Positions 9,661 through 42,929 are shown, numbered from the stretch's first letter. The stretch: 64,000 bases of DNA from Amphiura filiformis (GCF_039555335.1 NC_092646.1:36795911-36859910); one strand, 5' to 3'. Notes: generated from the sequence alone by a model not told the origin. Translations and numbers: made by a program.

Positions 9661-9818
9661 CGTTCTGGGGCGCATGGGAAGCATGGGGTAAATGCGGCGT
9701 AGTGTGTGGCGGTGGGGACCGATACAGAATAAGGAAATGCTACTACGACGGAGAAGTACCAATAGGGAAATGCCGGGATCAAATTACGAGATGAAGAGGT
9801 GCAATACACAGGGTTGCT
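9661..9818 (+). CDS. Copy 1 TSR-A exon (thrombospondin type-1 repeat), carrying a 1-nt deletion/frameshift relative to paralogs
   Basis: A polypyrimidine tract plus ggtag acceptor precedes it. It encodes FWGAWEAWGKCGVVCGGGDRYRIRKCYYDGE... (W-x-x-W-x-x-W, C-x-x-CGGG, R-x-R). It ends at the donor t|gtaagt. Length is 158 nt versus 159 in copies 2 and 3. The frameshift near 9771-9780 (tgcc-ggga versus tgcccagga) breaks the C-terminal ...CPGS.YE..CNT..CC reading. Confidence 0.5.
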
Positions 9819-10618
9819 GTAAGTAAAACATTTTGTTTTTCACGACGCTTGAGTTACGACGGCTTTTGCTACATAAACAGGCTAACAGGTCTTCATTTTC
9901 TGGAAACTAGGAAATGTCCATGCAGATTAATTGAGTAGGGCAAATTAAACTGAATCAATATACCTCGAACAAACAAACGGTTGTCAATTATACACCGACT
10001 TATATTGTAATGTATCTTATTGTTTTTCAATCAATAATTAATATAGTTATTGAGCTAAAATGACTGAAAATGCTGACTAATATGTCTTTTTGGGCCAATA
10101 TTTTGCCAAGAATCAATGTATTAATTTTCAGAAAACTTATCTTGTAGACTTTTACCGTTAAAAGTAGTCAAAGTGTTTCTAATGTGCTCTTATACAGTGT
10201 GTATGTTCTAGCCGCTCTCTAATTTACATACTTGCTTAATTGATAATAATTTATTTAAATTAGCTGTAATAATGTAATTAGGCTTTATGCGTAACTCGCA
10301 AATTCAATTTCAACTGAAATAGGCTTTTTTCTTGGACATCTATTTAACCACACCTTAAAAAGATGGTACTAAAACACGAAATTTATTCTACAATTTCGGG
10401 AGTATTTCCCAGGATGTGCTGGACATACGAACCCATAGAATACCATAATTCTGTCTAGGTGCACTGATGACAAGACAAAACATGCAGTCATAATTCTGTC
10501 TAGGTGCACTGATGACAAAGACTCCGGGACAAGACCTAGTACTATTTTTGACAACTAGTAAAGAGGTCAAACATGATTATAATAACTTTGTGATGACTGG
10601 GTATGTTTGAACTTGCAG

Positions 10619-10759
10619 GTGAGTCATGGGGATCGTGGTCCGAGTGTAGCAATTGTGATAGCAGTGGATGGGGTAACCAATACAGATATAGAATGTGCTG
10701 CGATGTTACCGGTCGCACATCATTCCAAGATCGAGCATTACGCAAGTGCACTGGTTGTC
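10619..10759 (+). CDS. Copy 1 TSR-B exon (second TSP1-like repeat), phase 1-1
   Basis: Acceptor cttgcag|gt and donor c|gtaagt. It encodes (C)ESWGSWSECSNCDSSGWGNQYRYRMCCDVTG...KCTGC. The 141-nt length is symmetric phase 1. Confidence 0.5.
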
Positions 10760-12849
10760 GTAAGTGTAACCAATCTTTTTCATATTCCAATTTCAAATAA
10801 TGTGTATGATGTATTTGCAAAGACAAACACTTTTTCTATCACTTTATTACTTTCTTTTAAATATGTATCCGTTATTCTAACAAAAATAAAATTGCATTAT
10901 TATTACTGGGATCAAAAGTACTTTTGCGTTATTGTATAAATTTTACTCTTTTTTTAGTTAGCTGAATTAGTCAATGTCGTTTACTTTCGAACCCATAGCA
11001 TACCAACTTTTTGGTGCAAATTTAACAAAAACGCTAAAGAGTCTACACTGACCGCTGACTTGCATTCCGAAGTTTTATCATATCTCTCCAAATGACAACA
11101 TTCAAGTTCTAATATACAGCTGATAAAACCATTTCAAGACGCTAAAGACAGCATTGACGTTTCAAATTGTACCTAAAATGCTGATTTTGATACACATAAC
11201 TTAAGCGCCTCTAACCCTATTGAAATTAAGCTGCATTCTCTTCAGTTCTTTGAAACAAATTCTTATCAAATCCATATTTCTCACAGAATTAATATTACTA
11301 TACTATAGGGTCCACAACTTATAAGTTCCCCCAAGATTCTTTTTAAAATAAATCGAAAAATATTTGACGAAATGCAAACGTGTAAAATGGTTTCGGTAGC
11401 CTTATTTGTTTTACACATAATGGTCCAAATTATAGCGCACACGCCATTGCGTTAGGTCACTATGGTTCATTATGTAAACATATACTTCTAGTGCCCGTTT
11501 CTATTCATCGTTATGTAATCTTCTCCCGTGCATTATTTTCGCGAACTACTTCGCGTGCAGGTTTATATAGACCTGCACGCTAAACAATACATTATCTAAA
11601 ACCTGCACGCTAAACAATAGATTTTAGATAATACGTGCACGCTCAAATACTAGAAATACTACTTTCACATTACTATGTAACTATGTTCGATATATATACC
11701 ACCAAAAAAGTACGAATATACATTCTGTGGTGTTAAAATAGTTATAGGGTATGGTATTTTTTCATGCGCACTTTGTAACTCATAGGTTAACTGTTCTATT
11801 TTGCAACTATCATTGCCATAAATTATGATTAATGAACTCAAATAAATCAAACATCAAATGAGAATAATCGAGCTTCTATTAATTAAAAAGGGCTAAAAAC
11901 AGGTGGACCATAATTATACAAGATGACACCATTACAAAATATTCAGCATTTTACAAATGAATTACATGTAGGCCAATATCTAAGATAACATAAACACGCA
12001 CGGGAAACACACACTAGCGTATAATATCATGATCATGCTTTATAATACTGAACACATTGAAAAATTCCACTCTCGTGTGTTTTAACAATATTAGTAGATT
12101 TTAAATTGTAGAACTATAAAGTCCAGTTGATATTGATATATAAGTTTATTCTCTCATCTCCATTCACCGTAGTACTACATGTAGTGGGACGTCAAAATCG
12201 ATTGTTTCCAACTGCTTCAGTGCTCTCTGTGTTCGGAACCACGATATTAAATGATCACAACATAAAGTCAATTGGTTACAAACCATGCGTGAATAAGTTA
12301 CTAAAGTATGACGTATGGCGCAATCGATACCATTGATAGCTAACTTATACAGTGATTCATTTTCTTGACCAGTTACTAGTAAATGCTGCCTGGTCAATGA
12401 CCTGACGGTGTTTTTAACATTTAAGATATTTTACCTAATATTCAAACTAATATAATGAAAACAAATTGCTCGTCGTATGGGAGTTGCGCTTAATGCGATT
12501 CGAAAATTGAGAACAAAATTTCAGGTGACAAGAGAAGTGAAAAATCAGCCGACAGATGTGTTCGACTGATTACATGACTAATTTTGCACGCTCGTCTACT
12601 TCGGAAAATCTGAAAAGCAGTCGCGGGCATCGCATTGCGGGCATTATTCGGTCCGGGGATTCGTGAGTTTCCCACTTCCCTCGACCCCTCCCTACCACCA
12701 TTACCACCACTTCGAAATCATGCGCACGCCACTGATAATGATCAAATCGGTTTAAATGATGATTTAATTGGCAGTAGAGAAACGTTATCTTTTCTGTTTC
12801 CATTTTTCTTATCCTTTTTCTTTTCTCATTTTTTATTTCATTTCACCAG

Positions 12850-13538
12850 CATCATGTTTTGCTTCCGACTCTATGGTTCGCGTGAAACTACTCACCAAAG
12901 ATGACGGCACGAAAATAGAACGTAAACGAATGTATCAACTGAAAGTAGGAGATCACGTGGAAAGCTTTGACCCAGAAACAAACTCGGTGGCATTTTCCGA
13001 AGTGTATTTCATATCTCATGAAGATGAAAGCAGCAACTCCTCTCGCTTGATAAAGTTAGTGTTCGGATTCGAAGATAAGAAAGAGCTATCTCTTCGTCTG
13101 CATTCGAAGCATTTGGTCTACGCGTGCAGTATTAAGGAAAAAGCTGAACCAACTGAAGCACCCATCACTGATTCCTGTCGGTATCCACCGATGAATCCAG
13201 TAACCGCTGAAAGCGTGAAAATCGGCGATATCGTTTGGCTAAGAAATTCTGCCGGTGAATTCTCCCCAAAACCGGTGATCAAAATCGGTGAGTCCTGGAA
13301 TGGTATTCGACATCCAATGACTCTCAACCATTACATTGTTGTAGATGATGTTTTGGCGTCTGTTCATATGTATGATGAAGGGTTATACAGGCAGGTCACA
13401 GCTCCGTTGAGATTTCTGTATGGCATCAGCCCGTCTATTACCGACACTAGCCTTGTTAAGAAGCTGGTCCAAATGTGGGATCATGTTGAAGACAAATTTC
13501 TTGTAAGTGATTTGAGGCACTGGTTTGGATTAAATTGA
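12850..13538 (+). CDS. Copy 1 terminal exon: Hedgehog-type Hint (Hog) autoprocessing domain
   Basis: Acceptor tttcaccag|ca. It encodes (P)SCFASDSMVRVKLLTKDDGTKIERKRMYQLKVGDHV...LVYA...IRHPMTLNHYIVVDDVLASVHMYDEGLYRQVTAPLRFL. These are Hh-C hallmarks: the Cys-Phe start, TxxH-like LHSKHL, VV(N/D)DVLAS(C/V), and an A-P-(F/L)-R-(F)-L start of the sterol-recognition-like tail. The terminal frame differs by 1 nt from copies 2 and 3. Confidence 0.6.
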
Positions 13539-41357: not shown

Positions 41358-41450
41358 TATTATAAATCATTTTCTCACGACGCGCGAATTATGGCGGCTT
41401 TTGCAACATAATACAACTCCTCATTTTCTGGAAACTAGAAATTGCCTTAA

Positions 41451-41801
41451 GGGGGTACTACACCCCTGGCCAAATTTGTGCCTATTTTTGCATTTTTCTC
41501 AAAAATTATACTGCATTGGTGGTAAGTAAGATATGCATATTATAGGGGCAAGGACTACAACTACTGCACTGAAAATTCAGCAACTCAAGGCAAGTAGTTA
41601 TTGATTTATTGATCAAATATTGGTTTTCCCTCATTTTTGACTGCAACTCCTCAACTGTTGTCTGTGCTGAAATAAAATTTCCAGTGCAGTAGTTGTAGTC
41701 CTTGCCCCTATAATATACATATCTTACTTGTCAGTAATGCGCTATAATTTTGAGAAAAATGCAAAAATAGGCACAAAATTGGGCAGGGGTGTAGTACCCT
41801 C
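41451..41801. mobile_element. piggyBac-like MITE family C copy (TTAA-flanked)
   Basis: More than 95% identical to 17401-17750. The flanks are ccttaag|...|cttaagg. Confidence 0.65.
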
Positions 41802-42761
41802 TTAAGGTTAACAACTAATTTAAACTGTTACAGTTTGGTAGTTCACAGCATCTTGCGAATGGTAGTGAGCTTAGGCAAATTTGCATTGATCATTCATAGC
41901 GAGCATGTAGAAGAATTCAAATATCACATATACTTTTGTAGGTCCTGTGGTTCTTCAGTTATGTTGTAAAGAGGGCTGACACAACAAGACTTTTGTAAAA
42001 CGTATATAACTTATTAACAACAATAAATCAAGCAAGTTTTCAAAGTATATCATGTACTTTTGCAAAAATGAAGGTGTTCTCTTTCAATAATATATTGATC
42101 TAGATAATGAAAATCGGGGTTTTTTTTGGTTGCTTCGACCAACAGTACCTCGTCTACCCGCACGTCTTTAAGCAGATTCATTGAGTAGGGCAAAGTACAC
42201 TGATGAATATGCCTATGCAAATCGGACATACGGTTCTCATAATACTAATACATCGATTTATAATTTATTTATATCTTATGTTTCATCAATAATCAATATA
42301 GTTAATGAGCTAAAATGACTGGAAAAGCTCATTATAATTATAATATTATAATGTTTGCCAACATTTGGCTAAAAATCAATGCATTAATGTTCTCGGCGCT
42401 TTTTATTTTGCCTTGAAAATTGGTCTAATGTATAGAGTATTATATTGTCTAGATGCCTTCTAATTTGCATATTTTCAAAATTAATTAGCATTTATTCAAA
42501 TTAGCTCTAATATATGTAATTATACGTAACTCCCAAAATCAATTTCCGAATCAACTGAAAATTCGGAAATTTAAGCGTTTTCCATGTGTAGGGCCTATAC
42601 CTATTATACTAAAAAGATGATGCTAAAATCACGAAAACCCCATCTAATTAAACGAATTTTTTCTATGAGTACAATTTTGTGATTTTATTTTATGACAACT
42701 CAAAAAATGTCAAACATAATTATAATAACTTTGCGATGTTTGGGTATGTTTGAACTTATAG

Positions 42762-42929
42762 GTGGGTCATGGGGATCGTGGGGCGAGTGTTCCACTGGCT
42801 TCTGTTCTACCCAAGGACTGGCTTACCAATGCAGAAACAGAAGGTGTAGGAGTAGCCTGTGGCATTCAACTCAATACCTTGTAGACCTATATTCATACAG
42901 GATTGAAGATTGCCGCGACTGTAAATGTC
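42762..42929 (+). CDS. Copy 3 TSR-B exon (168 nt, strongly divergent sequence)
   Basis: Acceptor cttatag|gt. It encodes (C)GSWGSWGECSTGFCSTQGLAYQCRNRRCRSSLWHSTQYLVDLYSYRIEDCRDCKC, ending at the donor c|gtaagc. Confidence 0.45.

Follow-up and report, generated by a model that had tools for sequence, protein, structure and literature searches.

Deaminases of the AID/APOBEC type are familiar above all from vertebrate immunity, in which they act as mutators inside the cell, and TSP1 repeats (TSRs) are classical class 1-1 exon-shuffling modules. In the stretch of brittle-star DNA described here (Amphiura filiformis, GCF_039555335.1 NC_092646.1:36795911-36859910; 64,000 nt of chromosomal DNA with a G+C content of about 35%, called the window below, with positions counted from its first nucleotide), a putative signal peptide, a deaminase of this type and two TSRs (TSR-A and TSR-B) are joined to a C-terminal Hog domain in a tandem cluster of unannotated genes. 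Each of these parts has been described in other settings. In the Hog proteins, which include Hedgehog, the nematode warthog, groundhog and quahog proteins and members from cnidarians and protists, conservation of the Hog domain goes together with turnover of the N-termini, and no deaminase or TSR N-termini are listed for them (Buerglin 2008, PMC2362128). Secreted AID/APOBEC-like deaminases (AADs) have been reported only from vertebrates, sponges and dictyostelids, those of the SNAD group (secreted novel AADs) only from the first two; the AADs of echinoderms are given as classical, with no signal peptide described and no Hint or TSP1 fusion mentioned, and the general pattern among AADs is one of lineage-specific tandem expansion and fast sequence evolution (Krishnan et al. 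2018, PMC5889660). In bacteria, polymorphic toxins combine a secreted deaminase with a HINT-fold autoprotease and adhesive repeats (Iyer 2011, PMC3239186; Aravind 2012, PMC3417536). Full-text literature searches found no published deaminase-Hint, deaminase-Hedgehog, deaminase-TSP1 or deaminase-TSR-Hog fusion.

Set beside these systems, the brittle-star genes are familiar in their parts and differ in how the parts are put together. As in other Hog proteins, a C-terminal Hint module with a region like the sterol- or adduct-recognition region (SRR/ARR) starts from the catalytic Cys-Phe and follows a variable, putatively secreted N-terminal part; here, however, that part is an AID/APOBEC-like deaminase with TSRs, and not Hedge, Wart, Ground or Qua. 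The likeness to the secreted deaminases of the SNAD group lies in the putative signal peptide, in a zinc deaminase with HxE and PCxxC motifs, in tandem expansion and in a ratio of nonsynonymous to synonymous divergence (dN/dS, omega) of 0.34-0.69, whereas the SNAD4 and NAD1 profile scores fall below threshold. The bacterial toxins resemble the family in their overall composition and in its diversifying, conflict-type character, but their HINT domain is N-terminal and releases a C-terminal toxin, while here a C-terminal Hog domain would release the N-terminal part, which is the polarity of Hedgehog, and the deaminase belongs to the AID/APOBEC type of eukaryotes. The TSRs of TSP1, the ADAMTS proteins, spondins and properdin likewise have each repeat in an exon of its own, bounded by phase-1 introns, and vary in repeat number; what differs here is the degenerate TSR-B and the placing of the repeats after a deaminase and before a Hog domain.

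A tandem cluster of deaminase-TSR-Hog genes

Comparison of the window with itself revealed three tandem units that share a large downstream block (copies 1 to 3; Table 1). A full gene consists of four exons, namely exon 1, TSR-A, TSR-B and Hog, joined in phase 1 at every junction, with exon 1 encoding an N-terminal leader, an AID/APOBEC-like zinc deaminase and a polybasic RxKR site. When the four exons of copy 3 are spliced in silico, they give an uninterrupted open reading frame (ORF) of 558 residues, in phase 1 throughout, which reads in order signal peptide, deaminase, TSR-A, TSR-B and Hog. Among copies 1-3, a clean full ORF was obtained from copy 3 only; copy 1 is organised in the same way except for a frameshift in TSR-A. 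A fourth gene begins at 60850, and its later exons lie beyond the end of the window.

Table 1. Exons of the gene cluster, and the retrotransposon within copy 3, by position in the window
Feature	Position	Strand	Basis
Copy 1 exon 1, leader and deaminase (HSE, PCTEC), RQKR, phase-1 donor CTG/gtaag	5408..6149	+	tblastn with P0005, ORF, Pfam APOBEC_N/SNAD4/NAD1
Copy 1 TSR-A, 158 nt, frameshifted	9661..9818	+	boundaries; internal ATG of P0001
Copy 1 TSR-B, 141 nt, phase 1-1	10619..10759	+	
Copy 1 Hint/Hog (..CPS/CFASDSMV..), 12-residue C-terminal extension relative to other copies	12850..13538	+	Pfam Hint
Copy 2 TSR-A, 159 nt	26384..26542	+	
Copy 2 TSR-B, 135 nt, phase 1-1	27213..27347	+	
Copy 2 Hint/Hog, stop codon included	29196..29848	+	
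Copy 3 exon 1, leader and deaminase (HCE, PCNDC), RGKR	35413..36103	+	
Copy 3 TSR-A, 159 nt, phase 1-1	41060..41218	+	
Copy 3 TSR-B, 168 nt, phase 1-1	42762..42929	+	
Copy 3 Hint/Hog (..CPSRS/CFASNSMV..), stop included, equal to P0002	48798..49456	+	
Fourth gene exon 1, leader and deaminase (HSE, PCPEC, RQKR)	60850..61564	+	
Ty3/gypsy-type retrotransposon, copy 3 intron 3	43145..47581	-	long terminal repeats and ORFs

Exon 1 of copies 1 and 3 and of the fourth gene was located by tblastn with a relative of 473 residues (P0005). The deaminase domain spans about 200 residues, and its HxE and PCxxC motifs are invariant in five sequences (copies 1, 3 and 4, P0022 and P0005). In Pfam searches of exon 1, APOBEC_N scored 26.3 bits, above its cutoff of 25, while SNAD4 at 25.3 and 21.3 bits stayed under its cutoff of 27 and NAD1 was likewise below threshold. 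By these scores the domain belongs with the AID/APOBEC-like deaminases, and its fold is APOBEC-like; it appears similar to the secreted AADs, though no score places it in SNAD clades 1-4. The hydrophobic N-terminal leader of exon 1, MALTILCSFLLLSAFLYAPTVYG, was recognised by eye as a putative signal peptide. Right after the deaminase, a polybasic R-x-K/R-R is found in every family member examined, including deaminase-Hog proteins that carry no TSR; it reads RQKR at about 6115-6130, RGKR at 36070-36085 and RQKR at 61525-61540 in the window, NRKR in the contig L001 from another species, and RKRKR in P0005, and the TSR-less forms (P0029, P0032, P0038 and P0040) have LRKR or RRKR. It looks like a proprotein-convertase site. 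No NCBI-sourced protein in a collection of 5.8 billion sequences matched the deaminase exons, so that the full genes appear to be unannotated.

The Hog block is a single exon that opens at a phase-1 acceptor with ..C-P-S/C-F-A-S-D-S-M-V and contains a Hint module (PF01079, E 9e-19). A profile of the Hog family matches Drosophila Hedgehog (6td6, E 2e-27), SHH, 7e2i and 1at0; the catalytic Cys and the TxxH His align with those of Hedgehog, the His of LHSKHLV being aligned to the Hedgehog TPAH motif, and the alignment extends into the SRR/ARR region. The profile matches and the catalytic alignment together make this a Hog domain in Buerglin's sense (PMC2362128). The sequence S/CFAS is present in all copies, and amino acid identity of the Hog domain is 90-94% inside the cluster and about 75% across species. 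Parsimony counts of synonymous and nonsynonymous changes (15/13, 8/7 and 9/4, against a neutral ratio of about 1:3.5) indicate purifying selection on each of three branches, and since the domain has been constrained on every branch, none of the copies can have been a free-running pseudogene for long. An NCBI protein of A. filiformis (P0002, 'warthog protein 4-like') matches the Hog exon of copy 3 at 100% identity. As a separate observation, the Hog exon of copy 1 runs at 13490-13538 past the ..KFL-stop end that is found in copies 2 and 3 and in relatives, which adds 12 residues (VSDLRHWFGLN), and a perfect GTAAGT donor stands at the read-through point.

The TSR exons had been the subject of an earlier note on this DNA, in which they were described as modular phase-1 cassettes with a second repeat that is hypervariable among paralogs. 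A six-frame motif scan found the six exons where that note had placed them, all on the + strand and with the peptides that it quoted, and its limits fall on the start of the first exon (9661) and the end of the last (42929). All six carry a GTAAG donor, an AG acceptor and phase 1 at both ends, and the three TSR-B lengths, each a multiple of three, fall inside the claimed 135-168 nt. The observation is thus correct for the most part, but three details required correction: the length of 159 nt given for TSR-A applies to copies 2 and 3, copy 1 having a 1-nt deletion; the perfect polypyrimidine acceptor is seen in TSR-A and not in TSR-B, the acceptor of which, gggtatgtttgaacttatag, is not pyrimidine-rich; and the YRYRKCY end of the TSR-A consensus does not describe copy 1, which reads DRYRIRKCY. 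Phase-1 introns on both sides and a length that is a multiple of three, the two marks of a class 1-1 exon, were found in every case save the 158-nt TSR-A of copy 1, and also in the contigs L001, L003 and L005. From the donor of exon 1 to the acceptor of Hog, all introns in these genes are in phase 1; the second species has 1-1 exons of the same kind (159/162 nt and 135/168 nt), and in relatives the number of TSRs that separate Hog from varied N-terminal domains is 0, 1, 2 or at least 4. The cassette point is right but ordinary, and the more notable result is the gene cluster itself. The earlier note took the TSRs for the gene and missed the deaminase and Hog exons, which define the protein. 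An NCBI model (P0001) uses the TSR-A donor, both TSR-B splice sites and the Hog acceptor of copy 1, and a scan of the window with a hidden Markov model of the family detected no further TSR exon.

The two repeats differ in how well they keep the TSP1 pattern. Against Pfam TSP_1 (PF00090, cutoff 21.6 bits), TSR-A gave E 6.5e-14 (52 bits) in copy 2 and 1.4e-7 (32 bits) in copy 3, with WxxWxxW, CxxxCGGG, RxRxC and six Cys; in copy 1 the match is interrupted by the frameshift. The sole TSR-B over the threshold is that of copy 2 (23.5 bits), with 11.5 bits in copy 1, 18 in L001 and no hit in copy 3 or L003. TSR-B is degenerate, with two Trp, altered Cys spacing and Cys counts of 6, 5 and 7 in the copies, while a scaffold of WxxW, QxRxRxC and a terminal CxC is retained across them and two loops vary in sequence and length. 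None of the copies of TSR-B contains a stop, all indels are in frame and the splice sites are conserved. The amino acid identity of TSR-B in copy 1 is 50% to that of the other species as against 42-49% to the neighbouring copies, and copy 1 is the most ancestral-looking of the three, with copy 3 the most derived. A low-complexity stretch, YYYTTRTT, is found in the TSR-B of copy 2.

Divergence of TSR-B and its possible causes

Between copies, nucleotide identity is 92-95% in the Hog exon, 76-80% in TSR-A and 81-88% in the first 32 nt of TSR-B, and in the TSR-B core it is 47-56% (54-58% in the alignment used for the Fisher test). The intron between TSR-A and TSR-B (the A-B intron), in a gap-tolerant alignment computed after two transposon insertions in copy 3 had been gapped, is 74% identical between copies 1 and 2, 74% between copies 1 and 3 and 81% between copies 2 and 3. 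The similarity of flanking intron sequence that had been noted earlier thus extends over the whole A-B intron once the transposon insertions are removed, but not downstream of TSR-B, where homology lasts for about 60-100 nt only and is then lost. In all three pairs, mismatch density in the TSR-B core is greater than in the intron (odds ratios 2.1, 2.4 and 3.3; Fisher p = 0.0017, 4e-5 and 8.6e-8); the same comparison of TSR-A with the intron in copies 1-3 showed no difference.

Nei-Gojobori estimates give a dS of 0.15-0.23, a dN of 0.026-0.048 and an omega of 0.18-0.22 for the Hog exon; for exon 1, dS is 0.30-0.40 and dN 0.14-0.20, with the omega given above; TSR-A has a dS of 0.25-0.60, a dN of 0.18-0.31 and an omega of 0.39-1.25, and TSR-B a dS of 0.50-0.93, a dN of 0.47-0.57 and an omega of 0.52-1.14. 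With intron divergence (K, 0.22-0.32) as the neutral yardstick, the ratio of TSR-B dN to intron K is 1.48 (p = 0.087), 1.77 (p = 0.006) and 2.23 (p = 0.0007). In the second species, where the paralogs are older, TSR-B is at 64% the least conserved exon, yet it stands above the unalignable introns (45-55%), which makes it a coding exon that is constrained over the long term.

The hypervariability of TSR-B is therefore real and exceeds the neutral proxy: the exon is far more diverged than TSR-A, the Hog exon and the flanking intron, and the opposite outcome, an intron at least as diverged as the exon, which would have spoken for relaxed constraint, was not what was found. A rate of change above that of the intron, with frame and scaffold kept, tells against simple decay and favours positive selection acting on the loops. 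Diversifying selection on TSR-B is the leading reading, plausible though unproven; of the proposal that this repeat is a diversifying recognition module, the part that stands is that the exon evolves faster than the intron, whereas a dN/dS of 0.5-1.1 in three copies leaves diversifying selection a candidate explanation. Taken as a whole, it is with moderate confidence that we read the six exons as the two TSR modules of three tandem deaminase-TSR-TSR-Hog paralogs, in which TSR-B diverges most likely by positive selection.

The excess could be produced by the region itself or by its alignment, if TSR-B were an indel-prone, GC-richer mutational hot spot or if non-homologous loop columns had been forced together. 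The exon has a G+C content of 49% as against 31-33% in the intron, its alignments contain 12 gap columns for copies 1 and 2 and 28-33 for the pairs that include copy 3, the intron alignments are gap-tolerant and copy 2 holds the low-complexity stretch mentioned above. The intron of copies 2 and 3, however, can be aligned over its full length at 81% identity, and outside the two transposon insertions it has only about 39 small-gap columns, which makes for a sound baseline; TSR-A (45-52% G+C) and Hog (43-44%) are similar in composition and show no excess. Nor would a hot spot yield only indels in multiples of three, and neither an excess of C-to-T or G-to-A changes (transition/transversion ratio 0.75) nor any off-frame similarity was seen, so that a hot spot or artefact is considered improbable.

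The sharp boundary within the exon, between the first 32 nt and the core, has also been weighed as a trace of mosaic origin, in which TSR-B cores were swapped in by short ectopic conversion from other TSR-Hog exons of the family. Such exchange would raise synonymous and nonsynonymous divergence together, as is seen in TSR-B, and many TSR exons of the family are available in this genome and in the other species; the closest pair of TSR-A exons is copies 1 and 3, while for the intron and Hog it is copies 2 and 3, which hints at exchange. On the other hand, no donor-like sequence is present within the window, the core of copy 3 is unlike any canonical TSR, and the QxRxRxC island lies in register in mid-core in all copies, which fits better with divergence of two loops in situ. 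A mosaic origin is accordingly held to be quite unlikely.

Several observations weigh against the reading of three paralogs with a positively selected TSR-B. The dN/dS of TSR-B (0.52-1.14) is not clearly above 1, and its apparent dS of 0.5-0.9 is far over the 0.15-0.23 of Hog, which pure positive selection does not predict, this dS being estimated from some 25 synonymous sites of an alignment that is itself unreliable. The alignment of the TSR-B core is near saturation (transition/transversion ratio 0.75), and some of its columns may be non-homologous. The sample is three copies, two of them structurally compromised. In copy 1, a 1-nt deletion near 9773 (GCC-GGG, compared with GCCCAGG elsewhere) shifts the frame of TSR-A and leads to a TGA at 9792; copy 2 is without a deaminase exon, of which no trace was found between 15.8 and 26.1 kb; and a 4.4-kb retrotransposon lies within intron 3 of copy 3. 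The NCBI models are partial, P0001 being without a signal peptide and P0002 consisting of Hog only, and full-length expression of the copies is a prediction from sequence. With regard to the Hog domain, the catalytic Cys is preceded by Ser where Hedgehog has Gly, His takes the place of Thr in the TxxH motif, and conservation at the position corresponding to Asp303 is not clear; these departures from described Hog proteins make sterol transfer in particular uncertain, and autoprocessing and adduct formation remain predicted activities.

Many of the same observations would be expected if the cluster were decaying and TSR-B, as its least constrained piece, were drifting under relaxed constraint or pseudogenisation. 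The TSR-A frameshift and stop of copy 1, the loss of exon 1 from copy 2, the retrotransposon of copy 3, the presence of fragments only in the NCBI annotation, a dN/dS of about 0.5-1.1 and the differing Cys counts are all in line with decay. Drift, however, cannot push an exon past its own intron, which is what the TSR-B core has done in three of three pairs, and the dN of TSR-B alone is greater than intron K. Its lengths of 141, 135 and 168 nt hold the frame in spite of several indels, without a single stop, and Hog has been under purifying selection on all three branches. Decay is for these reasons judged to be unlikely, and positive selection on the loops of TSR-B is retained as the preferred explanation.

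Three other proposals were tried and rejected. Compensated frameshifts as a source of novelty in TSR-B would leave off-frame peptide similarity, which was no better than background. Hypermutation of TSR-B by the linked deaminase is not matched by an excess of transitions (transition/transversion ratio of 0.75, compared with 1.0 in the intron) or by a C-to-T bias. Gene conversion that homogenises the Hog exon is unneeded, as Hog dS is comparable to intron K.

State of the copies and mobile elements

Because of the TSR-A frameshift in copy 1, which could be recent or an assembly error, the NCBI model P0001 starts at an internal out-of-frame ATG and is without a signal peptide. In copy 2, the sequence upstream of 26128 is rearranged repeat DNA, and an in-frame ATG at 26293 is followed by a signal-peptide-like hydrophobic stretch, MLNCIFNWNTYNVLFLANLFLLLALFFSTVA, which reads directly into TSR-A (26293-26383); the homologous stretch of copy 3 carries a stop. 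It was considered whether the TSR-A acceptor region codes for a signal peptide (in copy 2, the ATG at 26293 and then LFLANLFLLLALFF), and this was rejected as a general structure on the grounds that copies 1 and 3 have no open frame there and show frame-breaking indels, and that the phase-1 donor of exon 1 fits the TSR-A acceptor exactly. For the truncated copy 2, position 26293 is a possible secondary start that would give a TSR-TSR-Hog protein.

The retrotransposon in intron 3 of copy 3 is bounded by long terminal repeats of about 160 bp that are 98% identical (43145-43304 and 47422-47581), and ORFs like those of reverse transcriptase and integrase were read by eye at 43814-46376. Its presence probably explains the Hog-only NCBI model of this copy. 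In intron 2 of copy 3 (41446-41806) lies a 360-bp element resembling a miniature inverted-repeat transposable element, with long terminal inverted repeats and an 80% reverse self-match, and a second copy, 94% identical, is found between genes 1 and 2 (17396-17755); an insertion of 136 bp at 41224-41328 matches 1573-1674. The intergenic DNA is rich in repeats (16750-17866 against 24043-26024; 17989-19264; 50316-52127; 31173-33163; 2023-4208), inverted duplications flank the upstream region of copy 2, and there are also two tandem arrays, one of about eight repeats (unit of roughly 150 bp, 92%) and another at 50.3-52.1 kb, as well as a direct repeat of 890 bp (96.5% identical) and an inverted one of 830 bp (91% identical).

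Relatives, proposed mechanism and significance

The same four exons, in the same order, are present in an ENA contig of another species (L001), with TSR exons of 159 and 135 nt in phase 1-1. A Logan contig (L002, SRR27871395) contains an uninterrupted ORF of 473 residues with a signal peptide, the deaminase, one TSR and Hog; it is probably a transcript, in which case a single mRNA would contain all these domains. Among 1.8 billion representatives, a profile search recovered about 65 relatives of the deaminase domain. Several of these, of about 430 residues, consist of the deaminase and polybasic site followed directly by GCFPS and Hog, with no TSR, and in one (P0033) the same deaminase domain is fused to a galectin domain. 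Other N-terminal parts are found ahead of Hint or Hog: three CUB domains and four TSRs in L004 (2172-10636), CUB and TSR arrays or TSR arrays alone in other Hog genes of the second species, and AIG1/GTPase domains (PF04548, PF01926) in A. filiformis P0019 and P0021. The family is modular, and since all junctions examined are in phase 1, the gain, loss or skipping of a TSR exon would leave the frame intact. In one paralog of the second species, an RVT_1 ORF of 632 residues stands between the TSR-A and Hint exons (L005, 6180-8078), and no TSR-B exon was detected in that paralog.

Exon structure, domain identities and relative rates are observed directly; from this architecture we infer a mechanism in which the protein would enter the secretory pathway and the Hog domain would carry out an N-to-S acyl shift at its first Cys, with cleavage at S/C freeing a deaminase-TSR-TSR fragment. 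The released fragment may bear a sterol or other adduct at its C-terminus, two residues past TSR-B. The TSRs would serve as the adhesive or targeting part, and the deaminase may be parted from its TSR tail by a furin-type protease acting at RxKR. After the duplications, TSR-B would have outpaced the adjacent intron through substitutions and in-frame indels in two loops, most likely under positive (diversifying) selection on a binding surface, with the N-terminal half as a whole evolving fast and Hog remaining conserved. It is suggested, tentatively and as a possibility that is still doubtful, that these proteins represent an undescribed class of secreted invertebrate effectors, in which a mutator deaminase is carried on a TSR tail, released in the manner of Hedgehog, possibly tethered by a lipid, freed by a furin-type cut and directed by TSR-B as a diversifying targeting surface; they would then be an animal counterpart of the bacterial deaminase toxins in host-pathogen conflict.

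As the RefSeq models are fragmentary, with one wrong-frame start and one that is Hog only, and the searches found no NCBI protein with the deaminase exons, the family would be missed by proteome-based surveys. The joining of a secreted-type deaminase, adhesion repeats and a Hedgehog-lipidating autoprocessing domain in one frame gives a concrete, testable model for extracellular tethering, targeting and release, and it widens the known range of N-terminal cargo on Hog domains. Within it, TSR-B is a module of 45-56 residues that has outpaced its own intron among young tandem paralogs, which makes it a candidate for diversifying selection within a family of echinoderm effectors.

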